From positions 28,971 to 92,970 of the forward strand of contig CAZYPN010000026.1 of assembly GCA_964649085.1 (NCBI GenBank): DNA of 64,000 nucleotides, written 5' to 3'. Each line of letters starts with the position of its first letter. Position 1 is the stretch's first letter. Origin of the DNA: an uncultured Burkholderiales bacterium. GTDB lineage: Bacteria > Vulcanimicrobiota > Xenobia > Xenobiales > JADMJV01. The notes below the pieces were generated by a model. That model did no database searches, was not told the origin of the DNA, and was given only the letters and a program-made list of their open reading frames with translations. Positions 28,701 to 53,198 of the stretch are shown here, one piece after another. Both the position numbers and the translations under genes were made by a program.

Positions 28701-28984
28701 GGCTCGAGAAGGGCCTCGTCCAGCGCGTCGGGCATCACCACCCTGGCTCCGGCGCTTTCCAGGAAGCCTCGAAACTCTTCCAGTTCGGCCTTGCCCAGCC
28801 CGGCACGGGCCGAGTCCTCGTCAAGACCCACCAGCACCAGTTGATCCACCAGAGGTCGGTCCTGCCAGTGGCGCACCAGTCGTTGGCGCACATCGTAGCT
28901 GGCCCATTCCAGGCTGCGGCCCAGGCCCAGCTGGCCCAGCAGCAGGCCCAACAGTGCCGCAAACAAGCGCAGTCGCAGGGCCAC
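25751..28984 (-). CDS. Membrane signalling protein: two consecutive CHASE2 sensor + class III adenylate/guanylate cyclase (CHD) modules in one 1077-aa polypeptide
   Basis: Two CHD-like regions (GDAQMVGFG...TNTAARLMG and YQGDAQLVVFG...GDSVRRAHKVQS) each preceded by a TM-flanked extracytoplasmic region; GTG start with GAGGG SD. Confidence 0.75.
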   Translation of the reverse strand: MALRLRLFAALLGLLLGQLGLGRSLEWASYDVRQRLVRHWQDRPLVDQLVLVGLDEDSARAGLGKAELEEFRGFLESAGARVVMPDALDEALLEPDGVVRRFQLLRQGRPTSLMSELARVKGTPVDRLVLPLDRQGRFYPLFHFAETEAMVSGPTGVFRLAPIPLLAAAQNPEHLKGKVVVLGSYLQSAEQVDRKTPTGSMARLELLGSLWDSLLSGHGWKPLPLAFQLALGAAWLAGLCGLLSRLQPAGAGLVWLLSLGLWALLQLELARRGLVGAVVPVWLGSLGALVTGLMLQGPLAARLVQAFSTPEPESKDGEMREASILFTMLPQFLLDLEKSDHHRASRLRREYSQLLGEVLLPHQGLILDQQGDAQMVGFGTLHPRQAHALRAVAAGLDLCRRVPELMQSWEAPPEAIHCGVCTGPVAWGEVGASGLKAAAAIGDTTNTAARLMGAARKLGKGVLISERTREQAGIRVEAEALEPLVLKGKAEPVPVFEARQALVRRQPRRTSDGRPRSWGRGAPRATLAVATLATGAAWLLGPIPWLSGWLWDRPLLHSRAPIATRVVLAGIDEACLEVHRWPWPRNLHARVLANLERAGVGCVFYDILFDTASNSTDEDRALAEAVQKFPRVVLAGAARRRAGSSEVEPPSLLPGLDVAQLRERMQVGLIHSRMEDQEGRLRSLALVYRELNPAYPAAALAVAAQLQRQPLHPGPPLQLGSQRLPEQCLVRWQRPRRLRYSYARLLEEPLPPLQGAVVMVGDAMPGESDRFDTPVGPMKGAEVHAQLLETLLAPRPPQDLRESRWGTLLAGLACALVAGLGMKARRFAELTLVSLAGLGLAWLGHFWLTRAGWVLSQEPVTSVALAGLLLLLGRTLMSVSALRRFVPDSIVLDLVQRGETPDRVGEATILVTDIRGYTSLSERRSPVQILELLNEYHEETVACYERHGGSVLTYQGDAQLVVFGLLRPLARPALAAVRAAMELEQVVSRLRSRWNLSEHESFDVGAGLCSGLLTVGILRAGDQQQFTVIGDSVRRAHKVQSQSDLLGRSVLLDERTRVLCGEELNFDEVGELFSPRN

Positions 28985-30024
28985 TAAGGCACCCTCAGTT
29001 GGCCCTCCAGCGGACGTCCCTGGGGCTGCCCCTGACTGTCTACAGGCCAGGCTCGCCAGCGATAGGTGCCCGACTCCAGCGGGCGCGCATCGGACGGATA
29101 GTCTACCTCGCCCTGGTTCGTCCGGGCGCTCCAGTAGAGCTCGCGTTCAAAGGAATCGCCGCGGGTCAGCAGCAGCTGATAGCCTCCGGTGGCAGGAGCA
29201 GGCAGCGAAAAGTGAGGGCGCCCTCCCACCAGCCAGGCCGAGGCGCCGGTGCGCATCTGCGTTCCTCGGTTGCTGTTCGACCCCCTCAGTCCACCCAGGC
29301 TCTGCAGCAGGCTGTCGCGAGTGGTGTAGGCCGCCTGCCTCAACTCGTCGGCCGTGGTCAACATATCCTGGCGAAAGGCCTGCATCTGCTGACGGGTTTC
29401 AAACAGCTGCTGACGCATGTCAAACAACTGCTCGCCCAGTTCTGCGCGCAGTCGCTTCAGCAATTCTTCGGTCGAGCGCAATTCGGCCACCAGCGGACGC
29501 CCCGCTCCAAAGACCACGTCGGCTCCGGGCACGGCCTCATAGGCCTCTCCCTGATCGGGCTGCACGACCACTTCGCCTTCCAGCAGGGCCAGACGGGTCT
29601 CGCCGCTCTCCTGTACCGACACGACGAATTCGGTGCCCTTGATGGCCATCACCCCACCGGCGGTCTTCACCTTGAGGTCTTTCTTCTGCTTGTCCACTTT
29701 GGCCCAGAGCGTGCCCGACTTTACCAGCAGGGTATTGCCCACCACCTGCACATCGCGGTCGCCTACGATTTCAATTTCCGAGCCCTGAGCCAGGTTGGCC
29801 ACCCCGCCCAGATGAAAGCGCAAAGTGGCCCGCGTTTGCGCATCGGTCTTCAGGTGCTGCCCCTTGAAGTTGTCCATGTCGACAAAGGCTCGATACCAGT
29901 CGGACTTGCCAGCGTTGTGATACATCAGATTGCCGGCTCCCGCCAGGCTCTCCACCTTGCCCACTGCCGTGGGTTCGCTCCAGGCCGCCACGGCCAACCC
30001 AAGCCACAGGATCCAGGTTCGCAT
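28984..30024 (-). CDS. Secreted FecR-domain protein with a distinctive C-terminal domain
   Basis: Signal peptide MRTWILWLGLAVAAW; FecR-like beta-sandwich LWAKVDKQKKDLKVKTAGGVMAIKGTEFVV; GGGGG SD; stop overlaps the cyclase gene start. Confidence 0.7.
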   Translation of the reverse strand: MRTWILWLGLAVAAWSEPTAVGKVESLAGAGNLMYHNAGKSDWYRAFVDMDNFKGQHLKTDAQTRATLRFHLGGVANLAQGSEIEIVGDRDVQVVGNTLLVKSGTLWAKVDKQKKDLKVKTAGGVMAIKGTEFVVSVQESGETRLALLEGEVVVQPDQGEAYEAVPGADVVFGAGRPLVAELRSTEELLKRLRAELGEQLFDMRQQLFETRQQMQAFRQDMLTTADELRQAAYTTRDSLLQSLGGLRGSNSNRGTQMRTGASAWLVGGRPHFSLPAPATGGYQLLLTRGDSFERELYWSARTNQGEVDYPSDARPLESGTYRWRAWPVDSQGQPQGRPLEGQLRVP

Positions 30025-30090
30025 GTTCCAACCCCCTTTGGGGGTAGCTACGCCTTTCACGGCTTGTCTCCTACGGGTATAATCAACCCC

Positions 30091-31092
30091 ATGGGTTATG
30101 GCCTCCTCAACGACGTCTTGTTCAAAATCGTCTTCGGTAGCCCCAGTAGCGAGCCCGTTCTTCGGGCGCTTTTGAATGCGCTGCTCGGCTACACTGGAGA
30201 GGACAAGATCGCCGAGTTGCAGATCCAGAACCCTTCGTTCGACAAAGAGTTTGTGCACGAGAAGGGTTCCATTCTCGACATCAAGGCTCGAGATCGGAAG
30301 GATCAGCTTTACAATATCGAGGTTCAGCTCACGCCTGGCTATCCCGATGACTACCTGAAACGTTCCGTCTACTACCTGACCAAGCTATTTTGTGAGCAAC
30401 TTGAGCGGGGCCAGCCCTACAGCAGCCTGAATCGAACTATAAGCATTTCGTTGCTTGATTTTGTGCTGTTTCCCGAGACTACAGAACTCCACAGCCGATT
30501 TTCTCTCTACGAAAAGGACCGTCAACAACGACTGACCGATGTCATCGAGCTGCACTATATTGAGCTCAAGAAATTTTCACCCAACAAGCCTCATCATTTG
30601 CTGACACCGTTCGAAAGGTGGCTTTACATTCTGAAGTTCTCCGACCTTTATGAATCCGAACCCTTACCCCAAAATCTGCTGCAGGAAGAAGGTATCTCCA
30701 TGGCCATCGATTCTATGAAACGGGCCTATGCGACCGACGAGATCCGCGAAATGATCCTCGCTCGTGAAAAGGCCCATCGCGACCTTGTGAGTTTGCGCGC
30801 GAGCGCCATCCGGGAGGGTCACGAACTGGGTCGCGCTGAGGGTCGCGCTGAGGGTCGCGCTGAGGGTCGCGAGGAGGGTCGCGAGGAGGGTCGCGAGGAG
30901 GGTCGCGAGGAGGGTCGTCGCTCAGGGCTTCAGGCGGGATTGGCTTTGGCCCTGGATCTTCGATTCGGAGAGTCCGGGGCTTACTTGAAGCCATTGACGT
31001 TGGCCGCCACGGTACCACAACTCGAGGCCGCCCTGGCTGCCTTACCCCAGGCCACCACGCCCGCGGAACTCGAGGCCCTGTTGAAAAGCTGA
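30091..31092 (+). CDS. Rpn/YhgA-like PD-(D/E)XK nuclease family putative transposase (TIGR01784-type)
   Basis: Family-typical MGYGLLNDVLFKIVFG start; C-terminal GRAEG/GREEG repeats; about 50% GC against about 67% around it; TATAAT 8 nt upstream of the ATG. Confidence 0.75.
   Translation: MGYGLLNDVLFKIVFGSPSSEPVLRALLNALLGYTGEDKIAELQIQNPSFDKEFVHEKGSILDIKARDRKDQLYNIEVQLTPGYPDDYLKRSVYYLTKLFCEQLERGQPYSSLNRTISISLLDFVLFPETTELHSRFSLYEKDRQQRLTDVIELHYIELKKFSPNKPHHLLTPFERWLYILKFSDLYESEPLPQNLLQEEGISMAIDSMKRAYATDEIREMILAREKAHRDLVSLRASAIREGHELGRAEGRAEGRAEGREEGREEGREEGREEGRRSGLQAGLALALDLRFGESGAYLKPLTLAATVPQLEAALAALPQATTPAELEALLKS
30828..30918. repeat. About 7.5 tandem copies of a 12-bp unit ggtcgcgMKgag (GRAEG/GREEG codons) inside the Rpn-like gene
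   Basis: Directly visible. Confidence 0.9.
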
Positions 31093-31102
31093 GGAAGGGG
31101 CC

Positions 31103-31804
31103 ATGTCCTCGCTGGTCGGTAGGCAGCAACTGCAGCAGGCCTGGGCCCTGAGCCTGGAACAGCCCGAGTGGGCTGACTTGCTGCGCAGCGAACTGGAGTT
31201 CCTTGGCCAGGACTCGTTGCTCAGCCGCCTGGGCCAGGGCTCGGGCGAGGCCTGGCGACAGCTTGCGCGCTACCTGCGTTCGGGTCGATATAGCCTTGAG
31301 CAGGCTCGGTCCCAGGCTCTCGTATACCTGAATCCCCCGTCTGAATTTGTCGAAGCCTGGCAGCGGCGCCAGCGCTACCAGTTTACGCCCCGGCCGCTCA
31401 AAGTCGACGGCTGGCTCTACCGACTTCCCCAGCCCAGAGCCGAGTCGCTCGAGGGCATGCAGCGGGTGGTCAACCTGCGCCAGGAGTGCGAACGAAGCAA
31501 AGAGCTCTGTCAAGAACTGGGTCTGGAATACCACTGGCTGCCGGTGCCCGACATGCAAACCCCTCGACTCGACCAGGTGCTCACCTTTTTGGCCTTGTTC
31601 CATCAACCCCGGATTACGCTGGTGCACTGTTACGCCGGTCAGGGCCGCACCGGGCTGTTCGTGGCCTGCTATCGCATCTGGCGCGGCCTGCAAGTGGAAC
31701 AGGCCATCACCCTCACCGACCGCGAAATCGGTTCACGCGGCATGCGCGAACATCAGCGCCAGTGGGTGCGCGAGCATGCCGATCAACTGCAACCAACCCC
31801 CTGA
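31103..31804 (+). CDS. Dual-specificity / tyrosine protein phosphatase (CX5R P-loop)
   Basis: VHCYAGQGRTG signature; GAGGAAGGGG SD. Confidence 0.75.
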   Translation: MSSLVGRQQLQQAWALSLEQPEWADLLRSELEFLGQDSLLSRLGQGSGEAWRQLARYLRSGRYSLEQARSQALVYLNPPSEFVEAWQRRQRYQFTPRPLKVDGWLYRLPQPRAESLEGMQRVVNLRQECERSKELCQELGLEYHWLPVPDMQTPRLDQVLTFLALFHQPRITLVHCYAGQGRTGLFVACYRIWRGLQVEQAITLTDREIGSRGMREHQRQWVREHADQLQPTP

Positions 31805-31844
31805 GGGGGCAGGGGAAAGTCCTTTCGTCACTAAGCCAGCCTTG

Positions 31845-33584
31845 ATGGAGTTGCCCCGGGTCACCGAGCCCATCTCAGCCCCCGCCACCCTGCAGACCAT
31901 CGTCGAAGAGTACAATGCCCAGCCCGCCGCCGGCCTGCTTCGCGACGCACTCGGCTACCTGGCGCGTTACTACACCGGCGTGTGCGTCGCGGCGTGTCGC
32001 GAACTCGACTGTTTACCCGGCGAGGTCGCCCAGAACTGGTCTGGGCCGCCTTCTATCGAGCTTTCCCTGCCCATCCTGCATAACTGTCTGGAGCGCCTGC
32101 GCCCCTGTGAACAACGCCTGGCTCGCAAGCTGGTTCAGGTGTTTTACGAGCAGGATGGCCAGCTGCGCTCGTTTGCTCTGAGCTGCTTTGGCAGCTCGGA
32201 GTTTCAGGTCGCCGACTTTTGCAGCACGGCCCGCGATCAGGTCGAAAGCGCCCCCCAGGAGCACTTGGAGACGGCGGCACGTCTCGTCGACACCTGGATT
32301 TCAGCTTCTTTCAGTTTCTTTCTCGAGGCCGAACACCGCCTCGAAACCGGACCCTACTTCGGTCAGCTCGAGCAGGTGGTCTGTTTCGAGCAGTACACGC
32401 TGCGCAGTGGACTTACGATGCGCGTCCACGAAAGCCGCGGCCTGGCTCCACTGCCGGCCCTGGCGCCCGATTCCGTTGCCTTGGAGAGCGAACCCGTCCC
32501 TCAACTCGAGCCTCAGCCGGTGCCCACGGCTGGCGAGGCACCTGCCCTCGAGCCTCCCCGGCCGGTCGCGGCCGAGTCGCTGATCAAGTTTCTCGAAGAC
32601 AAGCAGCGCCATGTTCCGGCCGGGCCCGTTCGCTCGGCTCCGGTCGTCCCGTCCGATCAGGCGCCGCGCCTGGAGGTGCGGCTCGAGCCACTCGGCTTCG
32701 CCCGCAACAGTCGAGGCAAAATCGGCTATGGCGGTTTTCTTTGGGTAGAGTCCAACGACGGCGACCCCATCACCGGAACCGTCACGGCCACCGGGGGAAC
32801 GGTCGACATTACTCCACCCGTGTTCGAAGGGGCCACGACCCGCATCTCCTACTGGGTTCATCCCGACGACGTGGCCTCGTCTAAGCATTACCTGAAGGTC
32901 AGCGCCGACGGCGAAAGTCGCATGTACGGCCTGTGGCGGCTGGCCCCCCCCAGTCGGTTCGAGTCGTTTACGCGCAGAAGGCTGGCCGGGCTGTTGCTGC
33001 TGCCTGGCTTGATCGGCGTGCTCTATTCTGCCTGGATTTTGTTCATCACCGAGCGCACGGTAGAGCGCCAGGTGCGGGCCATGTTGGGCAACTACGCCAG
33101 TGAGTATCTCAACCCCGAGCAACCCCTTTCTCTGAAGCAGGCCGGCATCGGCCAGCTCGACGTCACCTTCAAGCCGCAGATGGAATCGGCTGCATTGATT
33201 TTTCTGCTGGCCGCCTGGGCCACGCCGGTGGTGGTGGCCAGGCTCTATGCGCGCTATCCTCGCCGCGATCAGCGGCCGCTGGTGCTCTTCTTCATGTTGG
33301 GATGTTGTTTGCCCCTGTTGGGCTACCTGGCCCTGTGGAACACGCCGCTGACTCAGGGCGTGCTCACCCTCCATCCCGAGCTGGCCCAGATCGATTTTCG
33401 GCGCAGCTTCCTGGCTTTTGCCGCCCTCAACCTCGGCACGTCCCTCTACGTGGTGCTCTCGGTGGCTGGCTTCTTTCACCGCGTGCTCAACGAACTGGGG
33501 CGATTTGCCCTGGCCTCGCTGGGTGTGGCGGGGGTGGTGCTGGTCATCCTCTTGCAGGTCTACGGACTGTCGTGGTTTAGTTAG
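31845..33584 (+). CDS. Hypothetical membrane protein (soluble N-terminus, Pro/Glu linker, C-terminal multi-TM)
   Basis: Chosen over the antisense ORF 32301..33479; the 5' part of the track ORF from 31347 overlaps the phosphatase gene and is rejected. Confidence 0.5.
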   Translation: MELPRVTEPISAPATLQTIVEEYNAQPAAGLLRDALGYLARYYTGVCVAACRELDCLPGEVAQNWSGPPSIELSLPILHNCLERLRPCEQRLARKLVQVFYEQDGQLRSFALSCFGSSEFQVADFCSTARDQVESAPQEHLETAARLVDTWISASFSFFLEAEHRLETGPYFGQLEQVVCFEQYTLRSGLTMRVHESRGLAPLPALAPDSVALESEPVPQLEPQPVPTAGEAPALEPPRPVAAESLIKFLEDKQRHVPAGPVRSAPVVPSDQAPRLEVRLEPLGFARNSRGKIGYGGFLWVESNDGDPITGTVTATGGTVDITPPVFEGATTRISYWVHPDDVASSKHYLKVSADGESRMYGLWRLAPPSRFESFTRRRLAGLLLLPGLIGVLYSAWILFITERTVERQVRAMLGNYASEYLNPEQPLSLKQAGIGQLDVTFKPQMESAALIFLLAAWATPVVVARLYARYPRRDQRPLVLFFMLGCCLPLLGYLALWNTPLTQGVLTLHPELAQIDFRRSFLAFAALNLGTSLYVVLSVAGFFHRVLNELGRFALASLGVAGVVLVILLQVYGLSWFS

Positions 33585-33589
33585 CCCCT

Positions 33590-33922
33590 ATGCGAACCAA
33601 ACAACCGGTCGATGTCCAGCTGCTTGAGGGGGTCCTTGAGATTCGCTGGAGTGACGGCCTTACCAGCCAGCATTCCATGGAGATTCTGCGGCGTCATTGC
33701 CCCTGCGCCACCTGCCGCACCGAGCGCGAGAAAATGCAGGGAGCCAGGGGGCTTTCCAGCCTGCGGGTCATCCAGTCGTCCACCCCGGCCGTGGCCGAGG
33801 CGCGCATTCTGCAGGTCACCCCCGTGGGGCGCTACGCCCTATCCTTTCGCTGGAACGACGGCCACCAGACCGGCATCTACTCCTACGAATTCCTGCTCGA
33901 GCATCAGTTGCCGTTGAAGTGA
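33590..33922 (+). CDS. DUF971-family small protein (CPCAxC zinc motif)
   Basis: RRHCPCATCRTE motif and about 110 aa size typical of DUF971. Confidence 0.65.
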   Translation: MRTKQPVDVQLLEGVLEIRWSDGLTSQHSMEILRRHCPCATCRTEREKMQGARGLSSLRVIQSSTPAVAEARILQVTPVGRYALSFRWNDGHQTGIYSYEFLLEHQLPLK

Positions 33923-35061
33923 GTGTAGGCCAGGTAGCCCACGCCGGTGGCGATGCCCACCGCTACGGCGCCGCTGACCACCGGGTGCTCTTTGATAAAG
34001 CTGCCCACGTTGGCCGCCGCGCTTTTGCTGCCCTGGAAGGCCATACCGGCCAGATCGGCCACCTTGTCGGGCACCCCCGCGCGCTCGAGCAGCACACCGG
34101 TGGCCACGCCGGCCGAGGCCACCACCGTAGCGGCCAGCACGGGGTGCTCGTAGGCAAAGGCCTTGACGTCGTTCATCACGTTGTCCCAGGTCTTGCCGCT
34201 GTCTTTCTGATATTGCGAGATGGCCGCCATCACTTCGCGGTTGATCTCCTTGGCATCGGCGTCGGGGTTGGCCGCCAGGCGGTCTTCCAGCGACTTGAAG
34301 GTTCCCTCCAGTGCCTGGGCCTGCGCTCCTGTGGGTTTGGCCGGAACCGAACCTTCGGCCGTCACCACCTGGTGAATCAGGTAGGCCGTGCCGCCGGCCG
34401 CGGCCAGGGCAATGCCGGTGGCCAGTAGGGGGCGCTCTTTGGCGGCCTGATAGATTTTGGAAACCCCGCCCGAGATGCCGTCGCTCAAGCCCAGCTTCTC
34501 CAGGCCCACGCCCGAGGCCGTGCCCAGCGCAAACAGGCTGGTAATGGTCAAGGCCGGGTGGTCCTGCATCAGGTTGCGCAGGTCGTTGACCAATCCCGGG
34601 CCGTCCTTGCCCGACTCGCGGGCATAGGTCTTGGCTGCGTCCATAATCTGGCGCGTGATCTGCTCGGCCTGCAACTGACCGTCGCCCGCCTGCATGTCCT
34701 TCATCTGTCGCTCGATGTCGCCCAGCCGTGAAGAGAGCTGCTGGCGTGCCTCTTTCTGCACCTGGGTCTCCACCTGCTGGGTGCCCACCGGTTGCTTGGT
34801 GCAGCCCGTCAGTGCCATCACGCCCACCAGTCCGGCCATTCCCATCGTAGAGGCCCGCATCCACAACGGCATCGAGGCCAGCTTCACCGGCTTTTCGGCG
34901 CTTTTTTCGGGGGCCGACTGGCCCGGCTTCATCAGGTTCAGGGGGGCTTCCGAGCCGCCTACCTCCAGCCTGTCTTCGAGCCGATGCAGAGTGGGGATCG
35001 GGCCTTTCAGCGAAGGCTTTCCGGTCGTGGGGGACGGCTGCTGGCGGAGGGCTGAAATCAT
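33904..35061 (-). CDS. Membrane protein with four repeated ElaB/YqjD(DUF883)-like HP-x-(A/V)-Gly-zipper anchor modules
   Basis: Repeats QDHPALTITSLFALGTASGVGL / KERPLLATGIALAAAGGTAYLI / YEHPVLAATVVASAGVATGVLL / KEHPVVSGAVAVGIATGVGYLAY; GGGAG SD; antisense ORFs rejected. Confidence 0.5.
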   Translation of the reverse strand: MISALRQQPSPTTGKPSLKGPIPTLHRLEDRLEVGGSEAPLNLMKPGQSAPEKSAEKPVKLASMPLWMRASTMGMAGLVGVMALTGCTKQPVGTQQVETQVQKEARQQLSSRLGDIERQMKDMQAGDGQLQAEQITRQIMDAAKTYARESGKDGPGLVNDLRNLMQDHPALTITSLFALGTASGVGLEKLGLSDGISGGVSKIYQAAKERPLLATGIALAAAGGTAYLIHQVVTAEGSVPAKPTGAQAQALEGTFKSLEDRLAANPDADAKEINREVMAAISQYQKDSGKTWDNVMNDVKAFAYEHPVLAATVVASAGVATGVLLERAGVPDKVADLAGMAFQGSKSAAANVGSFIKEHPVVSGAVAVGIATGVGYLAYTHFNGN

Positions 35062-35184
35062 GACGAAGCTCCCAGAAAATGGATGCCGCCACTATGCCCG
35101 GTCCGGCTGAAAAAACTCTCAAAGGAGTTCTGGCCCCACCTGCTAAGGTGCCCATTTTCCTACACTGTTCGGAGGATAGCGAAG

Positions 35185-36081
35185 TTGAGTGAGATCCACA
35201 CCCTGGCCGTGATCGGCGCAGGCACCATGGGGGCCGGCATTGCCCAGGTTGGGGCGGCCGCCGGATACAACGTAATCGTCAACGACGTTCAGGAGGCCTT
35301 CCTGGAGCGGGCCCGCAAAACCATTGCGGGCAGCTTTGACAAGTTCGTGCAAAAGCAGAAAATGAGCGAGGCCGACCGTCAGGCTGCACTGGATCGCCTG
35401 ACCTTCACCACCCGCCTCGAGGATGTGGCCCAGGCCGATCTCGTGGTCGAGGCCATCATCGAGCAGATCGCTGCCAAAGTCGAGCTCTTTGGCCGGCTCG
35501 AGTCGATCTGCAAGCCCTCCACCCTTTTCGCCAGCAACACCTCTTCGCTTTCGGTTACCGAAATGTCGCGGGCCTGTGCCCGCCCCCAACAGGTGGCCGG
35601 TATGCACTTTTTCAATCCGGTGCCGCTGATGAAGCTCGTCGAGGTGATTCGCACCCCGCTGACCAGCCCGGAAACGTTCCAGGCCATCTGGCAGGTGGCT
35701 CTGAAGATGGGCAAGTCGCCTGTCGAAACCCGTGACACCCCCGGGTTCATCTTCAACCGGCTGATCATTCCTTACCTTAACGAAGCCATGTGGGCTCTTT
35801 ATGAGGGCGCTGGCACGGTCAAAGACATCGACTCGGCCATGGTGTTGGGGGGCAACATGCCGATCGGCCCTCTGGGGCTGCTCGACATGATCGGCCTCGA
35901 CGTGCAGCTGCACGCCTGCCAGGCCCTCTTCGAGCAGTTTGGCGACCCCAAATTCCGTCCCTGTCCGCTCAACCGGGCCCTGGTCCGGGCCGGGCTGCTC
36001 GGGCGCAAAAGCGGCAAAGGCTTCTACGACTACTCCCAGGACCCGCCCCGGCCGCTCGCCATGGATCCGTTCCGACTCTAA
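35185..36081 (+). CDS. hbd: 3-hydroxyacyl-CoA / 3-hydroxybutyryl-CoA dehydrogenase
   Basis: TLAVIGAGTMGAGIA Rossmann motif, FFNPVP, 298 aa; TTG start with GGAGGA 8 nt upstream. Confidence 0.85.
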   Translation: MSEIHTLAVIGAGTMGAGIAQVGAAAGYNVIVNDVQEAFLERARKTIAGSFDKFVQKQKMSEADRQAALDRLTFTTRLEDVAQADLVVEAIIEQIAAKVELFGRLESICKPSTLFASNTSSLSVTEMSRACARPQQVAGMHFFNPVPLMKLVEVIRTPLTSPETFQAIWQVALKMGKSPVETRDTPGFIFNRLIIPYLNEAMWALYEGAGTVKDIDSAMVLGGNMPIGPLGLLDMIGLDVQLHACQALFEQFGDPKFRPCPLNRALVRAGLLGRKSGKGFYDYSQDPPRPLAMDPFRL

Positions 36082-36099
36082 ATTCTCAGGAGGTACCCG

Positions 36100-36912: not shown

Positions 36913-36928
36913 GAAGGAGTCATTATCC

Positions 36929-38125
<1,197 letters not shown>

Positions 38126-38129
38126 GCCG

Positions 38130-39347: not shown

Positions 39348-39367
39348 TATCTGCAAAGGAGGCTGCC

Positions 39368-45314: not shown

Positions 45315-45319
45315 CTGCT

Positions 45320-46597
45320 TTAGAAGCGCTGGCGGCCCAGAACTTCAATGTGGGCGGGTCCACTGTGGGCTCCGATACCCATCAGCGAGGTGTCGAAGTG
45401 AAAACCGGCCCCCTGTAAGGTCAATTTGCGGTTGGTGGCCACCGCTCCGAACAGGCCTTGAGTTTGACTGCCGGTAATCGTGACATCAGCCCGAGGGGCA
45501 ACGACCGTGCAGTAAGATTCCGAGCCGCCATAGAGCCCGACCGTGCCGGTGCCATCAAAACAGATCTTGAACTTCTTGGGGTCGCGGGTCGAGTTCAAAA
45601 TGGTGTCCGAAGCGAGCAGGTTGAGCGAGTTTCGCACATAGATCACCACCGACCCCGTGGGGTCGTTGAATCCGATGTCGCCGGCGGTCATCGAGATGCT
45701 GTCAAAAACATACTCTCCGGGTTGCAGTTCGATACGACCCAAGATCACCGACAGGTCCCCGTAGGCGCCGGGGGGCAGGCTGTGGGTGCCCCCCACGTCC
45801 AGCGGTCCGCTCCAGGGAAACGACTGGGGGGTTAGAGTCGGCACGGTGAAGGTGGGACAGGGCATGGGTTCGGGCAGAGTGCTGATGCTGCCCTGCACAC
45901 TGCCCGGGTCCCATAGCAGATCGGAGCCGCCCCCGGGGCCGACGCGTACATTGCCCTTGATGTCCCCCATATAGTTGCCGATGGCTTTCAAGGGGAAGGG
46001 GTTGGTGGCCCGGTTGGTGGCCACCACGTCGGCCCCTGCCACCAGTGTGGCCGGACCATAGGGCCCCGCCCCCGAGTCGTAAGCGTCAATGGTTGGGGGG
46101 TCGGCGCCGATGCCGATGGGCGGCACCACCATGTGGAAGCTGTCGGCCAGCGCGCCTACCCGAAAATCGCCGTTGAGTCGCTGGATCAAAGCCCCCACGC
46201 GGCGGCGCGCCAGCACCTTGCCCGAGGCCGATCGGGCCAGTCCGACGGAAAGCACGTACAGGGTGCCCTTGGGAATGGGAAAGTCCAGTTCGGGCACGCT
46301 CAGTTCGCTGGTTCCTCCCACATTGTCAAAAACCGTCACCTCAAAACCGTCGCCTGTCGGGTTGCCGGGCAGCGTTCCCGATGTCACCGAAGGGGGGAGG
46401 GGAGGAGGTGCTTTGCTCAGTTCATTGAGCGCCAGGGTTAAGCCACCCTCGGCCGCAAAGTGGGCCCTTTCACTGGAGAGTTGGCTCACACTTACCTGCA
46501 GTTGATCGGCGCTAAGCCCGATGGCGGCCAGTCCGATCACCGACACCAGGGCCAGAATCAGCAGTACGGGAACGATGGCCAGGCCGCGGCGCCTCAT
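45320..46597 (-). CDS. GspK/PilX-like large pseudopilin-family protein
   Basis: MRRRGLAIVPVLLILALVSVIGLAAIG N-terminus; ATG overlaps the upstream stop (ATGA). Confidence 0.65.
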   Translation of the reverse strand: MRRRGLAIVPVLLILALVSVIGLAAIGLSADQLQVSVSQLSSERAHFAAEGGLTLALNELSKAPPPLPPSVTSGTLPGNPTGDGFEVTVFDNVGGTSELSVPELDFPIPKGTLYVLSVGLARSASGKVLARRRVGALIQRLNGDFRVGALADSFHMVVPPIGIGADPPTIDAYDSGAGPYGPATLVAGADVVATNRATNPFPLKAIGNYMGDIKGNVRVGPGGGSDLLWDPGSVQGSISTLPEPMPCPTFTVPTLTPQSFPWSGPLDVGGTHSLPPGAYGDLSVILGRIELQPGEYVFDSISMTAGDIGFNDPTGSVVIYVRNSLNLLASDTILNSTRDPKKFKICFDGTGTVGLYGGSESYCTVVAPRADVTITGSQTQGLFGAVATNRKLTLQGAGFHFDTSLMGIGAHSGPAHIEVLGRQRF

Positions 46598-47211
46598 CGA
46601 TTGAGCACCGTGATCTGGGTTTCCAGTTCGATGCGCGTGCGGCTGCGACTGGTGATGGGTTCCAGGGCCACCACCCTGACCACGTAGGATCCGGGTAGGG
46701 CGCTGGGTGTCAGGCTCCAGTGTTCGATGTTGCGGGCCAGAACCCGGCGGGCTGGATAGGTCTGCGAGCGAAAGACCGTTAGAGCCGGAGCCGGTCCGGG
46801 CCCCGGCAACAGGTCGACCAGCGGCCCTCCGCTCAGGGCTACCTCCGAGCGAACCAGTTGGCTGCCTGAATCGAGGGAGTAGCAAAGCCACTTCCACCAG
46901 CGCAGTCGGGCGCTGTCCAGGGCGTATTCATAGCCCGATTGCGGAGCCAGCCGCTCGGGAGAAAGGAAGCGCACGGCCCCGGCGCTGATCACCAGGTGCT
47001 CGCGACAGCTGTTGTTCAGGTCGCGCCCCAGTCGGGCCAGCGCCTTCTGCACCTCTTGTTGCCCGCCCTGATAGGACTTCGACTGCTCAAACAGCCTCAA
47101 TCCGGCCAGGGCCAACAGATATAGGATTCCCAGCATGCCGAGCATCACCGTGCTGGAGACCACCACTTCGATCAGGTTGAACCCCCGCCGCCGGCTAATA
47201 GGGCCCCACAC
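46594..47211 (-). CDS. Prepilin-type pseudopilin (GspJ-like)
   Basis: RRRG|FNLIEVVVSSTVMLGML. Confidence 0.65.
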   Translation of the reverse strand: MWGPISRRRGFNLIEVVVSSTVMLGMLGILYLLALAGLRLFEQSKSYQGGQQEVQKALARLGRDLNNSCREHLVISAGAVRFLSPERLAPQSGYEYALDSARLRWWKWLCYSLDSGSQLVRSEVALSGGPLVDLLPGPGPAPALTVFRSQTYPARRVLARNIEHWSLTPSALPGSYVVRVVALEPITSRSRTRIELETQITVLNR

Positions 47212-47614
47212 AGGTCTGCAGGCGCACCTGGTGCTGAGCCCCGCCGGGGTCGGAGGCTCGGAACGGCCACTCCACCGTAACCACCACGTTCTTCACCTGG
47301 TCCGGCGCCCAGGGTTGGCTCACATCAACTCGATAGGTGAAGGTGCGGCTCACGGTGGCCGAGTGCACCTCGACCGAGCGGGTTACCGCCTGGGCCCCAA
47401 TCGGTTGCACGGCGCTGTAGTCCAGCGCTCGCTGGGCCTCCAGCACCTGCCGTGCCAGCGCGTTGGCCTGGGTCAAATCCATGCTCTGGTTCTGACTGCG
47501 CGCCACCGTCACAAACGATCCCAGGGCCAGCAGGGCGATGGTCCCCGTGAGTGCCAGCCCCAACATCAGTTCCAGTAGAAGGCTGACCCCTCCGGCTCGT
47601 TTTCTTCCAGCCAT
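47195..47614 (-). CDS. Prepilin-type pseudopilin (GspH/I-like)
   Basis: KRAGG|VSLLLELMLGLALTG with Glu +5 equivalent; GGAGG 4 nt upstream of the ATG. Confidence 0.65.
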   Translation of the reverse strand: MAGRKRAGGVSLLLELMLGLALTGTIALLALGSFVTVARSQNQSMDLTQANALARQVLEAQRALDYSAVQPIGAQAVTRSVEVHSATVSRTFTYRVDVSQPWAPDQVKNVVVTVEWPFRASDPGGAQHQVRLQTCVGPY

Positions 47615-47807
47615 GAGCCTCCAGTATAGCAGATGGCGAGGGCTATGGCCTTCAGTGTCGGCCCTGTCGCTGCAATGAACGGCGCTCTGGCAATCACAAA
47701 ACTCCTCGAATCGGTCATGGAACGGCAACGCCTTCCCCGGCCAGGTAGCTTTCTGGCAGTACCCGCCACTCTAACCTGAGGCATCACATCTCAGGAGGAC
47801 AAGACCC

Positions 47808-47999
47808 GTGCCCATCGTCAAAGAAAAAGACCCTCTGGTTCGTATGGCCCGGCGCCGAAAGGCGCAGCGCCGCGAGGCCATCAAGCAGATGAGCCTCGAC
47901 TTCGAGGACCGGCTCGAACACAATCGCGCCCTGATGAGCCTCTACCAGCAGCATCAGGCGGCGCTGCGCAGGCTGGGCAGCAGTACATCGGGGGGTTAG
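47808..47999 (+). CDS. Small basic hypothetical protein (63 aa)
   Basis: GTG start with AGGAGG 9 nt upstream; helical Arg/Lys-rich sequence; its 3' end overlaps the stop of the tubulin-like gene convergently. Confidence 0.35.
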   Translation: MPIVKEKDPLVRMARRRKAQRREAIKQMSLDFEDRLEHNRALMSLYQQHQAALRRLGSSTSGG

Positions 48000-50900
48000 C
48001 CCAGCTTCAGGGCCAGTCGCCCGTCCCCACGGGCCTGGCCCAGCTGGTCGCGGGGGCCTTCGATCAGCTGGTTGACTTGCCCGGAAAAGCTGTCTTGGCC
48101 CAGGGCCCGCACCGCCGGGCAATCGAGCACGGCGGCGATTTCGGCTGACAATACGCGCACCGTCATCATTTCTTCGAAGGGAAGCTCGGAGTCGTCGGTC
48201 TTACGGCCCCAGTCTTCGCCCCAGGCCTGGCGTTTCGTCAGCTCTAAAATGCCCGCATAGCGGGTCAGCAGCCCCTCGTCCGAGCTGGCCAGAATTTGCT
48301 GGCGCTGCTCGCGAACCTTGGCATACAGCTTCTCGCGCGTGGGGGCGTGGGTGCTCAGCTTGAGCAGGGTCATAAACTGGTCTCCCAGGGGGTGGGGGCG
48401 CATCTGGAAACCGTCGCGCTCCATCCAGAGATACTCCTGGCCCTTGAATTCCAGAATGTTGAACAGGCTGCCCAATACAAAGCACTGATAGGCCTCCTCC
48501 AGAGCCTGACGCTCTTCCTGGGTGAGGATCATCAGGTCGGGGAAACGCTTGTCGTTGCAGTCGATGTGCAGCGGATCGCCGGCCGTATACAGCTTCAAAT
48601 ACGACTCCCGCAGGTCGGCCAGCCGAGACGAGTAGTTGATCGGAAAGCCTCCGGCCTCCTGATAGAAAATCAGCTCCGAGCTGTCCGGCATGGGGTAGTA
48701 GCGCAGGTCGGTGCTCAATTCGCGACCGGCAATGGTTTTGAGTTGCTGAATATAGCCTTCGAGCTCGCTGCGCTGGGCCGGATCCATGTTGGAAGTGGGT
48801 CCGGGCAGGCCCACCATGATGTGGATCTGTTCCGGCGGAATGCGGAAGGTGCCGTGCACGCCGCTGCGGGTCACCCAGTAGGCCGAGCGGGCGAAGATCT
48901 GCTTGAGGTGGTGCACCCGCGAGGTCTCGTCTACTTGGGAAAAAAGCACCTTGACCACGTGGAAATCTGCCCGCACCCCCAGGAAGCGCTGGCGACACTC
49001 GGCCAGCAGGGCCCGCTTCCACTGGTCCGAGCGGCCCGCCGCCAGATCGACCGAAAGGCCGGTCACCGAGCGTTCCAGCCGGGCCAGCACGGCTTTGGAA
49101 GTTTCTTCGATGACCCCGGGGCGCACATAGGCCGGATAATACTTCTTCTCGACATCGGTGCTCTCGTAGAGCAGCAGCGCCTGGGGCAGCTTCTCCTTTT
49201 GGGAAAAGTAGTTGTAGCCCACCAGCAGGTCCTGCTTCATCTGGGCCAGGTCGCGCTGCAACTGTTCGATTTGCTGGCGAATGCCGCCGCTCAGGCTGCC
49301 GTCGGCGCGCACCTGGCCCGAAAGGGCCGGAATCAGGCGCTTGCAAAACTCGATGGCCTCTTTGTAGAGGCGGTCCTGCAGCAGGCAGCGCAGCAGGCCA
49401 GGGTTGGCTCGGTCGCCCACCAGTGCGTCCAGATAGCGCTCGGTGACGTGCTGCAGAATAATGGCCTTGCGACCGTCCCAGTTCATGCGGCCCTGCTGTC
49501 GGGCTACCTCGGTCAGGCAGCGCTGGGCCTCTTTCTGGCGGCGTTGCAGCTTGTCTTGAAGGTCGCTGGCCTGGCGGGCCATCTGTTCCGACACCTGCTG
49601 CAAAGCCTGGGCCGCTTCTTTGAGTACGGCCTCGGCAAAGCGCAGGCTCTCGTTTTTCTGATCGATCAGCCCGAAAGCCTGATTCTGCAGGCCCTCCTGG
49701 GCTCGCTTCAGCAGCGCTTCCATGTTGGCTCGAATGGTGCGCGGATAGCTGCCCCACTGGTCCGGACTGGTGCCTACCTGCTCGGCCCACATCTGCTTTT
49801 CGGCTTCTTGGTGGGCCCGGTCCAGAAATTCACGCAGGGCCAGGTTTTGCTGGCGATACACCCCGCGCTCGACTTCCATCATGCGCTGTTGCTTCCACTG
49901 GGTCAGTTCGTCAATCAGTCCGCGGCTCTTGCCCTTGTCGGGGTCGCCCAGGCCCTGGGTGTCCAGCAGCGCGTAGAGGATGTCGTGGTTCTTGTCATCC
50001 TCCTGCAGGCGCACTTTGGCCAGCACGTCCTGACGCACAAAGCGGGGCAGGTCGGCGTCGTTGAAGTCGCCGGCCGAAAGGCCTCCCCAGCGGTCGACGA
50101 TCTCCGAGGCCAGGCGGTGGGCGCAGGCCGTGATGATGCGGGCGTGGGGCACCATGATGCTGGCCATGCCCAGTGACCCGTAGCGCTGAATGAAGCGTTG
50201 CTTGAAGCGCGGGTGCTCGTAGTCGAAGGTCTTGTTCATATACTGGCGCAGGTTGATGCGAGCGCTGCGCTTGTGGTCGGCGAATTCGCCGTGGGAGAAG
50301 TCTTTGAAGATCGAGTCGGCCAGCAGCTCAAAGACCAGTTCCTGCGAGTTGGGCTGGCCCCCCGTCACCTGGCCGGCGGCGTTCTGGTTGTCGAACACGT
50401 AGCAGTAGTCAAAGGGCGGAATGGGCACCTTCGACTGGGTGCCCCGGGTCCACTCGGCGTTGAAGTGCGACACCCCATATTGGTAATAGTTCAGCTCCTT
50501 GAGCAGGGCATAAGAATTGGCCTTCATGCGTTCGTTGGTCACGCTGCCAAAGTGGTCGGGAAAGACCAGAAAAGAGGAAACGGTAACGTTGCCTTCCTGA
50601 AACACGTCCTTGACGAGGAAGGCCATGTCCATCAGCATGCCGCTGCCCGTGCCACCGGCGATCGAGGTCACCAGATAGACGTTGGTCGGCTGCTGAAACT
50701 CGACCTGGGCCAGCAACCCCTGGTCTTTGAGCACCGCCGATTTCATCATCGACTCCTGGGCCAGCGGGTCGCGTATGCGCTTGTTGGCGTCTACAATGGC
50801 CGCGCGGATGGCCGTGTAGTGATGAAAGAAGGCCAGACGGCTATAGGCCCGGATCTGTCCGGCCCCCTCGTTCATCTGCCCCAGTGAATTCAGCCCGGGA

Positions 50901-51223
50901 TACCACCACTTGTCGATGTGCTGGAAGTTCGGTTCTTTCAGGTTGGTGGTGATGGCCGTGGTGTCATTGATGGTCATCATCAACCGCTCGGTGTCGGTCA
51001 GGCGCACAAAGTCGCGAATTTCACGCGCCAGGATGTGCTTTTCGCTGCGGTCGGTGTCCATCCACAGATAGCCCACGATGGGAAACTCGGCCAGGCTGCC
51101 GTAGCTTTCGTAGAAACGGCGGCGGATGCGCATCACCACATCGCCGCCGGTGCCGCCCAGACCGATGATCAGGGTGGGACGGATGCGGATTTGCTCGTTT
51201 TTGGCGCCCTGGGTTTCGCTCAA
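47996..51223 (-). CDS. Tubulin/FtsZ-superfamily GTPase-like giant protein (1075 aa): N-terminal tubulin-like domain + long alpha-helical/coiled-coil C-terminal region
   Basis: N-terminal G-box PTLIIGLGGTGGDVV and the tubulin signature loop VTSIAGGTGSGMLMD (GGGTGSG-type); TTG start 12 nt after the upstream membrane-protein gene stop. Confidence 0.75.
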   Translation of the reverse strand: MSETQGAKNEQIRIRPTLIIGLGGTGGDVVMRIRRRFYESYGSLAEFPIVGYLWMDTDRSEKHILAREIRDFVRLTDTERLMMTINDTTAITTNLKEPNFQHIDKWWYPGLNSLGQMNEGAGQIRAYSRLAFFHHYTAIRAAIVDANKRIRDPLAQESMMKSAVLKDQGLLAQVEFQQPTNVYLVTSIAGGTGSGMLMDMAFLVKDVFQEGNVTVSSFLVFPDHFGSVTNERMKANSYALLKELNYYQYGVSHFNAEWTRGTQSKVPIPPFDYCYVFDNQNAAGQVTGGQPNSQELVFELLADSIFKDFSHGEFADHKRSARINLRQYMNKTFDYEHPRFKQRFIQRYGSLGMASIMVPHARIITACAHRLASEIVDRWGGLSAGDFNDADLPRFVRQDVLAKVRLQEDDKNHDILYALLDTQGLGDPDKGKSRGLIDELTQWKQQRMMEVERGVYRQQNLALREFLDRAHQEAEKQMWAEQVGTSPDQWGSYPRTIRANMEALLKRAQEGLQNQAFGLIDQKNESLRFAEAVLKEAAQALQQVSEQMARQASDLQDKLQRRQKEAQRCLTEVARQQGRMNWDGRKAIILQHVTERYLDALVGDRANPGLLRCLLQDRLYKEAIEFCKRLIPALSGQVRADGSLSGGIRQQIEQLQRDLAQMKQDLLVGYNYFSQKEKLPQALLLYESTDVEKKYYPAYVRPGVIEETSKAVLARLERSVTGLSVDLAAGRSDQWKRALLAECRQRFLGVRADFHVVKVLFSQVDETSRVHHLKQIFARSAYWVTRSGVHGTFRIPPEQIHIMVGLPGPTSNMDPAQRSELEGYIQQLKTIAGRELSTDLRYYPMPDSSELIFYQEAGGFPINYSSRLADLRESYLKLYTAGDPLHIDCNDKRFPDLMILTQEERQALEEAYQCFVLGSLFNILEFKGQEYLWMERDGFQMRPHPLGDQFMTLLKLSTHAPTREKLYAKVREQRQQILASSDEGLLTRYAGILELTKRQAWGEDWGRKTDDSELPFEEMMTVRVLSAEIAAVLDCPAVRALGQDSFSGQVNQLIEGPRDQLGQARGDGRLALKLG

Positions 51224-51235
51224 GGAATTCGGTTC

Positions 51236-51994
51236 CTAACTTCGGGTAAGGACGTAGCCAAGTCCAAAGATGCCCAGCACCACCACCAGATAGCCAGCGG
51301 GCACCAGGACGTAAATCCAGTAGAGCTTGTCCCAGACAATGATGGGGAAGAACACCATGGCGGCGGTGGCCAGGGCGGTCAGGCACCAGCTCAGCAATAC
51401 CAGCACATTGGACCAGCCTAGCGCGCTACCCACTGCCATGCGACGATGGCGAAGCATACGCGCAAACAGGCTTCGCCCGAACAGCATGTAGGTCGTAAAC
51501 AGACTACCCAGCGTGAAGCCCAGGATGATGGCCATTTCCACCTTGCTGTGGGGAGCCCTCAGCTCATCGGCTTTGACATCGCCCCGGGTGCTCTCGGTGC
51601 CGATGTGCCAGATGGCCGGCGACAGAGAATGCACCGTATTGTCCTGGATCAGGGTCAGCTCATAGTCTACGGGGCTTTTGTCTTCCTCGAAGACGACGAA
51701 CTGCACCTTGGCCACCCCGTCTTGTACAGGAAATTTGACGTATTCCTGAGTTTGACGAGCATACTCGATGCCTGCGCAGGCCAGGGTCTCGTGGTTGGCC
51801 ACCAGTTTGTTACCCTGCTTTTCATCCTGAGCCAGACGCACCCCAACCCAGGCCGTATTCTGTTCCACCAGGTAGGGCCGCTCAAAGCGGTCATTCACCT
51901 GAACTTCAATGGGAATCAGGCGGAATTTGGGCGGGTCGGCTCCCGCCAGTACCGAGAGAGCCACCGTCAAAAAGACAAGAATGCGCCACCACAC
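51236..51994 (-). CDS. Membrane protein: signal peptide, about 150-aa extracytoplasmic domain, three C-terminal TM helices
   Basis: MWWRILVFLTVALSVLAGA signal; C-terminal hydrophobic helices; 12 nt upstream of the tubulin-like gene. Confidence 0.6.
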   Translation of the reverse strand: MWWRILVFLTVALSVLAGADPPKFRLIPIEVQVNDRFERPYLVEQNTAWVGVRLAQDEKQGNKLVANHETLACAGIEYARQTQEYVKFPVQDGVAKVQFVVFEEDKSPVDYELTLIQDNTVHSLSPAIWHIGTESTRGDVKADELRAPHSKVEMAIILGFTLGSLFTTYMLFGRSLFARMLRHRRMAVGSALGWSNVLVLLSWCLTALATAAMVFFPIIVWDKLYWIYVLVPAGYLVVVLGIFGLGYVLTRS

Positions 51995-52028
51995 GCGGGC
52001 CTGTTCTTGCTCGACGGGGCCCTCCCCT

Positions 52029-53198
52029 CTACTGAACCGTGAAGTAGGTTTGGCTGGCTCGCTTCATCGGTTGATCCTCGGAATCCACCGGAATCACGCG
52101 CCAATAGTACTGTCCGGGAGCCAGGGGTTGGTGATTGGCTGGATAGACCACCTGGGTCTCGCGGGTCAGCGTGGTGAAGCGATTGTCATTGGCGTTCTCG
52201 TCGCTGGAAATCATCACCACGTAGCCGGCCGCTCCCTCGACACCCTTCCAACTGAAGCTGGGTCGGTTGGGCATCGGGCCCGCGCCGTGTGCCCCGTCAG
52301 GCACCAGTTGAGTGGGAAAGTCGGGTTCTTTGGGCTTGTTGTTGCGGGGGATCGACACTCCGAAAGGACCGGGAATGCGAGAATTGATCTGAGACTCAGC
52401 ATAGCTGATGGCTGTGTTCTCCGGGTCGGTGACCAGGTTGGCCCCCAACGAGGCATAGCTCAGGCCCGTATAGACATTGCCCGGAAGATAGGCCCCGGCC
52501 CCGAACATGTTGGCCACAGACATGGCCTGGTTCAAATAGCTCCAGGCCTCATTGAAGGTGCTGCGCAACTTGGTTTCACGAAATTCTTCGACGTTTTCGT
52601 AGGTCTTCACCACCGGGGCCGACTTAAAGTCTGTTTTGAACTGTTCTCCGGGCTTCACCAGTCCGACCACTTTGCCCGAGTTGTCGCGAACTTCTACGCC
52701 GCCCTGTTCGCTGTTGCTCTCAAAGCAACACACCTCCGAGGAGCCGCCCACCTCTTCCACGGTGAACTCGGTGCCCTTGATACCCATGACCCCGCCCGAG
52801 GTCTGGATTTCCATCGGTTGTTTCAGAGTTTTGGCGTCGGCTTTGACCCACATCGCACCGCTCTTCAAAATCACCCTTTTTACGCTGGTCTTGCCGTCGG
52901 CCACCGACTTTTCATCGACGATGACGATATCGGTGTTTTTGTTGATGCTCACCTTGCCGCCGATCAAAAACTCCAGCGCGGCCACCGTATTGGCGTCGGT
53001 GATGAAGTGGTCTTTCGGGTAGCCGGCCGCGTTGACCGACACGGCAAAGGGCTGCTCGGTGGGTCGCTGGCGCTGCAGCACGGGGGTCGAGCCCTCTTTG
53101 GCTGGCTTGATGCTCTGCACCCGTACCACGGCTTCTTCGGCCAGGGCGGCACCCATCATTACCAGAGTTAGAGCGAGAATGGTCGCATTTTTCTTCAT
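52029..53198 (-). CDS. Secreted FecR-domain protein, paralogue of 28984..30024 (shares the C-terminal Y-x-W-R-x-x-P-V-D-S motif domain)
   Basis: Signal peptide MKKNATILALTLVMMGAALA; VKADAKTLKQPMEIQTSGGVMGIKGTEFTV FecR-like; GGGAG SD; the longer track ORF to 53531 lacks an RBS. Confidence 0.7.
   Translation of the reverse strand: MKKNATILALTLVMMGAALAEEAVVRVQSIKPAKEGSTPVLQRQRPTEQPFAVSVNAAGYPKDHFITDANTVAALEFLIGGKVSINKNTDIVIVDEKSVADGKTSVKRVILKSGAMWVKADAKTLKQPMEIQTSGGVMGIKGTEFTVEEVGGSSEVCCFESNSEQGGVEVRDNSGKVVGLVKPGEQFKTDFKSAPVVKTYENVEEFRETKLRSTFNEAWSYLNQAMSVANMFGAGAYLPGNVYTGLSYASLGANLVTDPENTAISYAESQINSRIPGPFGVSIPRNNKPKEPDFPTQLVPDGAHGAGPMPNRPSFSWKGVEGAAGYVVMISSDENANDNRFTTLTRETQVVYPANHQPLAPGQYYWRVIPVDSEDQPMKRASQTYFTVQ

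Follow-up and report, generated by a model that had tools for sequence, protein, structure and literature searches.

Two secreted FecR-domain proteins in the window

The stretch of DNA analyzed here, referred to as the window, comprises 64,000 nucleotides of contig CAZYPN010000026.1 (assembly GCA_964649085.1, positions 28,971 to 92,970; G+C content ~63%) from a bacterium deposited as an uncultured member of the Burkholderiales and placed in the Vulcanimicrobiota by the GTDB taxonomy. It encodes two FecR-domain proteins, which we call FecR1 and FecR2. A preliminary description of the sequence regarded them as a reusable extracytoplasmic sensor module plugged into two different cytoplasmic outputs, namely the synthesis of cyclic nucleotide monophosphates (cNMP) by a double CHASE2-cyclase in the case of FecR1 and a tubulin-like GTPase filament in the case of FecR2. 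The two genes are as follows:

28984..30024, reverse strand: FecR1, a secreted protein with a FecR domain, a helical linker, and a C-terminal domain resembling fibronectin type III (Fn3); 346 amino acids (aa) counted from the ATG
52029..53198, reverse strand: FecR2, a secreted FecR-linker-Fn3 protein of the A type (named after the A-B-X-Y operons described below); 389 aa

The ATG of FecR1 is preceded by GGGGG, and gene callers prefer a GTG at position 30060, 12 codons earlier, which results in a protein of 358 aa. Sec signal peptides were recognized by eye at both N-termini (MRTWILWLGLAVAAWS followed by EP, and MKKNATILALTLVMMGAALA followed by EE). A BLASTP alignment of the two proteins revealed 26% identity over 327 aa (E 1e-22). 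It covers both the FecR and the C-terminal domains and is not confined to low-complexity segments. The motif pairs KTAGGVMAIKGTEFVV / TSGGVMGIKGTEFTV and TYRWRAWPVDSQGQP / QYYWRVIPVDSEDQP were found in the two proteins, and both sequences matched the Pfam FecR profile (PF04773) with 40.7 and 39.4 bits, at a gathering cut-off of 24. The match spans residues 58-152 of FecR1 (E 3e-10) and has an E-value of 8e-10 in FecR2. No third copy of the family was detected in the window by tblastn. FecR1 and FecR2 are true paralogues of the same architecture, and the signal peptide, FecR domain, and conserved C-terminal domain that had been ascribed to both are indeed shared.

Fold and distribution of the FecR-Fn3 proteins

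An AlphaFold (AF2) model of FecR2 was built from a 44-sequence alignment of the family. It had a predicted local distance difference test score (pLDDT) of 87.5 and a predicted template modeling score (pTM) of 0.84. The following parts were distinguished:

residues 1-20: signal peptide, a helix in the AF2 model
residues ~23-200 (52599..53132, reverse strand): all-beta FecR domain, from AF2 and Pfam
residues about 201-295: linker, helical and partly disordered in the AF2 model
residues 296-389 (52032..52313, reverse strand): C-terminal Fn3 beta-sandwich in the AF2 model

Foldseek matched the FecR domain to the periplasmic signaling domain (CCSSD) of PupR (PDB 6OVK, chain R) and to a Bacteroidales anti-sigma factor (4M0N), each with E 1e-5, and the C-terminal domain to fibronectin type III domains. 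The FecR beta-domain in the FecR2 model is therefore folded like that of the FecR/PupR anti-sigma factors. These proteins, however, carry a cytoplasmic anti-sigma domain and a TM (transmembrane) anchor, both of which are absent here, where the signal peptide runs straight into the FecR domain in both proteins. Neither an extracytoplasmic function (ECF) sigma factor nor a TonB-dependent transducer was found among the open reading frames (ORFs) of the window scanned with Pfam. Thus, the domain is common to both systems, and the system is not. A LysM domain was likewise not matched in FecR1 or FecR2, both of which have the Fn3/Ig-like domain at the C-terminus instead.

We retrieved 107 homologues of FecR2 and 17 of FecR1. 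The named ones derive almost exclusively from metagenome-assembled genomes (MAGs) of Eremiobacterota/Vulcanimicrobiota, with a few from Armatimonadota; the FecR-Fn3 family is mainly confined to the Eremiobacterota (Vulcanimicrobiota/WPS-2). Both proteins also gave weak NCBIfam matches to the leptospiral proteins LipL45, Lsa33, and Lsa19 (E 1e-6 to 1e-4), which would be compatible with surface adhesins of the FecR-domain lipoprotein type (LipL45/Lsa33) without any signaling role. We consider this reading very improbable: the scores of 18-28 bits are far below the cut-offs of 250-420, the lipobox cysteine is missing from both signal peptides, and FecR1 is translationally coupled to a cyclase in a conserved pairing, as described in the following.

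FecR1 is coupled to a fused double CHASE2-cyclase

The TAG stop codon of FecR1 shares one nucleotide with the GTG start codon (TAGTG) of the gene for a 1077-aa cyclase (25751..28984, reverse strand), in which Pfam detected two CHASE2 and two Guanylate_cyc domains. FecR1 had been described as lying immediately upstream of, and overlapping with, the double CHASE2-cyclase, which this one-nucleotide overlap bears out. The cyclase consists of two halves:

27425..28984, reverse strand: X half, residues 1-520, with a TM segment, CHASE2 (E 5e-14), three TM segments, and a cyclase domain (Guanylate_cyc, E 5e-6)
25751..27424, reverse strand: Y half, residues 521-1077, with a TM segment, CHASE2 (residues 543-818), further TM segments, and a cyclase domain (Guanylate_cyc, residues 903-1071)

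The best matches of the X half were the separate X proteins encoded at other loci (30% identity, E 4e-29), and those of the Y half were the separate Y proteins (34%, E 1e-78). The 1077-aa cyclase of the window consists of X and Y joined in one chain (X~Y). We ruled out that this fusion results from misassembly or a frameshift, because the same 1077-aa ORF recurs in independent assemblies and fused orthologues exist.

We surveyed loci by looking up contigs and by scanning a single genome of each species, which covered 30 loci; neighboring genes were classified by tblastn and ORF structure. At five other distinct loci (L009, L010/L037, L030, L033, and L038), a fused cyclase gene is directly preceded by a FecR1-type gene with 39-60% identity (that of L030 is alignable over part of its length only). 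FecR1 and the double cyclase form a pair that is both conserved and coupled in translation, and FecR1 can be regarded as the dedicated partner of the enzyme. We also considered whether FecR1 might be a B gene left behind when an A-B-X-Y operon lost its A gene. This was ruled out, since FecR1-type proteins form an old clade of their own (the same 39-60% identity) and have no adjoining A-type gene.

CHASE2-cyclases are the conserved partners of the FecR-Fn3 family

Three main arrangements emerged from the survey. Seven distinct loci of Eremiobacterota (L001, L002/L012, L003, L005/L017, L011, L013, and L023) have the order A-B-X-Y, that is, two FecR paralogues followed by two CHASE2-cyclase paralogues of ~600 aa each, with overlapping stop and start codons. 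About ten loci (L018-L022, L025, L026, L028, L032, and L036) contain a single FecR gene with separate X and Y genes. A FecR1-type gene together with a fused X~Y ORF of 1069-1111 aa is found in the window and at the five loci listed above, and the fusion is restricted to such FecR1-type loci. In total, CHASE2-cyclases adjoin a FecR gene of the family at ~23 of the 27 informative loci. X and Y, two paralogous CHASE2-class III cyclases, are the conserved genomic partner of the FecR-Fn3 family. Locus L032 harbors two FecR-cyclase systems back to back (5023..8638, reverse strand, and 10001..14638, forward strand); in one of them the FecR gene is located downstream of the cyclase genes instead of upstream.

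Members of the family also occur apart from cyclase genes. Two MAGs whose FlhA proteins are 87% identical each contain an orphan A-like FecR-Fn3 gene convergent with flhA (L015, 9980..13211; L016, 617..3866), and another orphan is convergent with a gene for a sigma-70-family factor (L014, 7799..10001). The MAG bin.189_sub contains three A-like copies (L014, L016, and L023). Dispersal of the family away from the cyclase genes is common, and the stand-alone A-like proteins indicate that the family can function there.

The genes next to FecR1 on its upstream side are oriented in the opposite direction. The first one is:

30091..31092, forward strand: PD-(D/E)XK nuclease/transposase (PDDEXK_2, Rpn-like; PF12784, E 5e-54)

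It points away from FecR1, with 30-66 bp between it and the FecR1 start, and occupies the place that is taken by the A-type FecR gene in the A-B-X-Y operons. The gene is possibly an agent or a scar of rearrangement, for which the evidence is circumstantial. Its product carries a GRAEGR/EEGR tandem peptide repeat. Beyond it, also on the forward strand (31347..33922), we found genes for a 745-aa protein without a Pfam match and for a 110-aa GBBH-like_N (DUF971) protein. Homologues of both are encoded upstream of the FecR gene at L020 and L030, on the same strand as FecR, which suggests a local inversion in the lineage of the window.

X and Y have complementary catalytic residues

The catalytic domains of X and Y were compared in an alignment of 17 sequences each, taken from 17 loci. 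In Y, both metal-binding aspartates are retained at all 17 loci (VTDIRGYT and YQGDAQ), and the transition-state asparagine is replaced by arginine and the arginine by lysine, glutamate, glycine, or histidine (lysine in the Y half of the window). In X, the first metal-binding aspartate is replaced by glycine, asparagine, serine, or methionine at all 17 loci, the second position is aspartate, and the asparagine and arginine are conserved (GDTTNxAARL; GDTTNTAARL in the X half of the window). This complementary decay of catalytic residues follows the same pattern at every one of the 17 loci. Class III cyclases have a head-to-tail architecture of their catalytic domains, and in such an arrangement the complementary residues would form one composite site that is competent and a second one that is dead. 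The alignment thus implies that X and Y are an obligate heterodimer, or in fused form a pseudo-heterodimer, with a single predicted composite active site. The nature of the product is uncertain, because the substrate-specifying positions of X are occupied by Asp/Ala, which corresponds neither to the Lys/Asp pair for ATP nor to the Glu/Cys pair for GTP of class III cyclases.

Mammalian membrane adenylyl cyclase likewise combines two domains, C1 and C2, in one chain, of which one provides the pair of metal-binding aspartates and the other the asparagine and arginine, so that one site is active and the other degenerate. It differs in having Lys/Asp at the substrate positions, where the system of the window has Asp/Ala. 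Moreover, each half has its own CHASE2 ectodomain here, and the halves are often encoded by separate genes in the relatives. The presence of two different CHASE2 ectodomains in each enzyme could explain why FecR is duplicated into A and B, yet many loci use a single FecR.

FecR2 lies upstream of a TM252-FtsZl1 gene pair

In contrast to FecR1, FecR2 is not located directly upstream of a co-oriented CHASE2 receptor gene in the window. This position is, however, taken by its orthologues, which head FecR-FecR-cyclase-cyclase operons at seven loci. The neighbors of FecR2 are:

51236..51994, reverse strand: TM252, 252 aa, with a signal peptide, an extracytoplasmic beta-sandwich of ~120 aa, and three TM helices
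47996..51223, reverse strand: tubulin-like GTPase of the FtsZl1 family, 1075 aa (PF13809, Tubulin_2, E 4e-69, residues 18-377)
53685..55481, reverse strand: PK598, a membrane Ser/Thr kinase of 598 aa, encoded upstream of FecR2 (Pkinase, E 4e-37)

In the tubulin-like protein, the GGTGSG loop is read in translation as SIAGGTGSGM, and the Tubulin_2 domain is followed by a putative coiled-coil middle part and a helical C-terminus. The protein is 81-85% identical to its counterparts at L006-L008. No Pfam or NCBIfam match was obtained for TM252. Its AF2 model (pLDDT 84) gave no significant fold match in the PDB, the best one being a CBM20-like beta-sandwich (E 4e-3). We found 35 homologues of TM252, and all named ones belong to the Eremiobacterota/Vulcanimicrobiota. 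TM252 is a conserved, phylum-restricted partner of FtsZl1, always encoded directly upstream of the Tubulin_2 protein.

FecR is not part of this partnership elsewhere. The TM252-FtsZl1 pair lacks an upstream FecR gene at all seven other loci, that is, in the genomes of L006-L008 and on L041-L044, four short contigs from a metagenome scan with a TM252 profile that serve as negatives for an upstream FecR. Two MAGs encode both systems on different contigs: GCA_046327835.1 has A-B-X-Y at L001 and a FecR-less TM252-FtsZl1 pair at L007, and GCA_019637395.1 has them at L011 and L006, respectively. Downstream of FtsZl1, the window is colinear with L006 and L008, with genes for a 644-aa protein, F420-ligase-like, PNPOx-like, and Rex-like proteins, and TatC. 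This synteny indicates that TM252-FtsZl1 resides at its ancestral place and that FecR2 is the newcomer. The order kinase-FecR2-TM252-FtsZl1 recurs only at L004 (at least 95% identical; FecR2, 95%), where the C-terminus of PK598 is also encoded upstream of FecR2. The longest contigs of the clusters of FecR2 and FtsZl1 at >=90% identity coincide in length (148,673, 8,792, 4,101, and 94,048 nt), which suggests that FecR2 and FtsZl1 co-occur there as well. Conserved adjacency in related genomes was thus found for FecR1 and the cyclase, and not for FecR2 and the tubulin-like gene. Of the idea of a reusable sensor module, the cyclase half stands, whereas the tubulin half is limited to one species-level lineage.

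The FtsZl1 systems described by Makarova and Koonin (2010; PMC2875224) comprise proteins of the same architecture as the 1075-aa protein, with neighboring genes for vWA proteins, protein kinases, a GTPase, and OmpA. FecR appears in none of the contexts described. In the window, a kinase gene is nearby as well, whereas genes for vWA, GTPase, and OmpA proteins were not found; the constant partner within the phylum is TM252. At L006, genes for a VWA protein and a small GTPase are located 6-8 kb from FtsZl1. The filament-forming elements of this tubulin family could not be identified (PMC2875224), and a GTPase filament, as proposed initially, is therefore unproven for the family.

Several other genes surround the FecR2 locus. 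PK598 has a proline-rich spacer, a TM segment, and a C-terminal extracytoplasmic beta domain, and no orthologue was detected at the related FtsZl1 loci. A second Ser/Thr kinase of 1210 aa with AAA_16/STAND and TPR regions is encoded further upstream (56707..60339, reverse strand), and a PilZ-domain gene is located between the two kinase genes (55540..56244, forward strand). Between FtsZl1 and the gene for the 644-aa protein, a minor-pilin-like cluster (45320..47728, reverse strand; PilX_N and DUF7305, prepilin-type N-terminus G/FNLIE) is inserted in comparison with L006 and L008. It is also present at L004.

Origin and present role of FecR2

FecR2 is 46-57% identical to the A genes of the A-B-X-Y operons, 33-37% to the B genes, and 25% to FecR1. 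In a neighbor-joining tree, calculated without bootstrap, it nests in the operon-type A clade, apart from the orphan clades; the placement of FecR1, which sits on a long branch in this tree, cannot be relied on. P0003 is the closest relative of FecR2 that is not trivially similar, and its contig, which ends just past the gene, gives no information on the gene context. We conclude that FecR2 came to lie beside the tubulin-like gene by a recent, lineage-specific move.

Comparison with L004 gave a ratio of nonsynonymous to synonymous substitution rates (dN/dS) of 0.055 for FecR2, at a dS of 0.54, with comparable values for TM252 (0.077) and FtsZl1 (0.032). Judged from these ratios, FecR2 is under strong purifying selection and is not decaying. 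Its FecR domain is 66% identical to that of the operon-type A proteins (70% among the other A-type proteins) and its Fn3 domain 50% (52% among the others), so that the rate of FecR2 is not accelerated relative to the operon-type A proteins. Constraint without acceleration favors an ancestral function over adaptation to a new partner.

The reading we prefer, and which we hold to be somewhat more probable than its negation, is that FecR2 has remained the ancestral partner of a CHASE2-cyclase and acts in trans. As in the known FecR-CHASE2 gene pairs, FecR1 would bind the CHASE2 ectodomain or ectodomains of its cyclase and set the cNMP output. Elsewhere, A-type FecRs are encoded at the head of A-B-X-Y operons. 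In the lineage of the window, such a gene was relocated to the front of a pre-existing, independently conserved TM252-FtsZl1 pair, and the protein most likely kept its role as an extracytoplasmic partner of a CHASE2-cyclase. Its present target might be a cognate B-X-Y system encoded at another place of the genome, or else the X~Y fusion 22 kb away. Conversion of FecR2 into a sensor of the tubulin-like protein probably did not take place.

Several observations weigh against a CHASE2-cyclase partner in trans. FecR2 and TM252 are encoded on the same strand with a gap of 34 bp that contains no terminator-like site, and FecR2 is probably co-transcribed with TM252-FtsZl1. (Promoter and terminator predictions for 47500..56000 were at the level of shuffled sequence, and we used the scan only for the missing terminator in this gap. 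A scan against Rfam gave no match anywhere in the window, and hence none to a riboswitch in the 486 bp that precede FecR2.) The order kinase-FecR2-TM252-FtsZl1 has persisted over a dS of ~0.4-0.5. The X~Y protein of the window is a member of the fused subfamily, whose other members are each accompanied by a single FecR of the FecR1 type, and it is only ~30-34% identical to the X and Y proteins that accompany A-type FecRs. No cognate cyclase partner for FecR2 is visible within the 64 kb of the window. Finally, the stand-alone A-like proteins of L014 and L015/L016 occur away from cyclase genes, and the papers found on such pairs report no experimental evidence of physical contact between FecR and CHASE2.

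The probable co-transcription and the persistent gene order, together with the purifying selection on FecR2, would also be expected if FecR2 had acquired a new function, in which it binds the beta-sandwich ectodomain of TM252 and signals through the three TM helices to the tubulin-like GTPase. TM252 does possess an extracytoplasmic domain to which FecR2 could bind. Set against this are the seven TM252-FtsZl1 loci without FecR, its absence from the published FtsZl1 gene contexts (PMC2875224), and the lack of any accelerated or domain-specific divergence of FecR2 from the operon-type A proteins. In addition, the TM252 ectodomain is a generic beta-sandwich that has no significant fold match in the PDB and no tie to a known FecR-binding domain. 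We regard such a rewiring as quite unlikely.

Alternatively, FecR2 could be a stand-alone envelope protein that needs neither of its neighbors; its Fn3 domain might, for instance, bind a ligand of the cell wall or the surface. The adjacency to TM252 would then be incidental. The orphan A-like genes in unrelated contexts next to flhA and a sigma factor gene, the three A-like copies of MAG bin.189_sub, and the missing cognate X/Y genes in the window are consistent with this explanation. It is made unlikely, though it deserves more credit than the previous one, by the grouping of FecR2 with the operon-type A clade instead of the orphan clades and by the prevalence of CHASE2-cyclases next to family members. 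We consequently rank the possible roles of FecR2, in descending order of probability, as CHASE2-cyclase partner acting in trans, the only one that we credit with a better than even chance; stand-alone envelope protein, which is doubtful; input to TM252-FtsZl1, which is more doubtful; and surface adhesin, for which we see hardly any chance.

Relation to known FecR-CHASE2 pairs and significance

In Burkholderiales and Pseudomonas (P. aeruginosa), a LysM-FecR protein (COG4254) is paired with a CHASE2 histidine kinase in an operon named "BiofilmReg" (PMC5192318). The likeness to FecR1 and its cyclase consists in a secreted FecR protein encoded immediately upstream of a membrane receptor with a CHASE2 sensor in one operon. 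The proteins of BiofilmReg, however, have an N-terminal LysM domain and a histidine kinase output, whereas a C-terminal Fn3 domain and a class III cyclase output are found here. Furthermore, two CHASE2 domains are combined in our receptor, which is either a heterodimer of X and Y or their fusion, and FecR can be duplicated (A and B). In Campylobacterota, a CHASE2 adenylate cyclase is clustered with a FecR-domain protein, a phosphodiesterase, and a TPR protein (PMC9239204). This cluster resembles ours in the combination of a CHASE2-class III cyclase with an extracytoplasmic FecR-domain protein. It differs in the phosphodiesterase and TPR genes, neither of which adjoins FecR1 in the window, and in its predicted outer-membrane FecR, in place of which we find a soluble FecR-Fn3 protein and a double cyclase with complementary sites. 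The FecR1-type and A-B-X-Y systems represent the known FecR-CHASE2 pairing with a new architecture, in which the FecR protein carries an Fn3 domain and the double CHASE2-cyclase is either heterodimeric or fused.

These results remove a tempting but weak inference, the wiring of a periplasmic sensor to a tubulin-like GTPase, since the constant partner of FtsZl1 is TM252 and not FecR. In a bolder scenario, to which we give little chance, an A-type FecR-Fn3 protein that was originally a CHASE2-cyclase partner has been captured into the TM252-FtsZl1 transcription unit in this one lineage and now serves as the extracytoplasmic input for the divergent tubulin-like GTPase. If true, this would be the first clue to how any FtsZl1 system is regulated and a natural case of a sensor module that was rewired from one output to another.

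The gene pairing of FecR and CHASE2 is widespread, and the version found in this phylum is unusually informative. One or two FecR-Fn3 proteins are matched to a cyclase that is predicted to be an obligate heterodimer, or is fused, and that combines two different CHASE2 ectodomains with one predicted active site, which makes both the stoichiometry and the partner specificity of the pairing testable.

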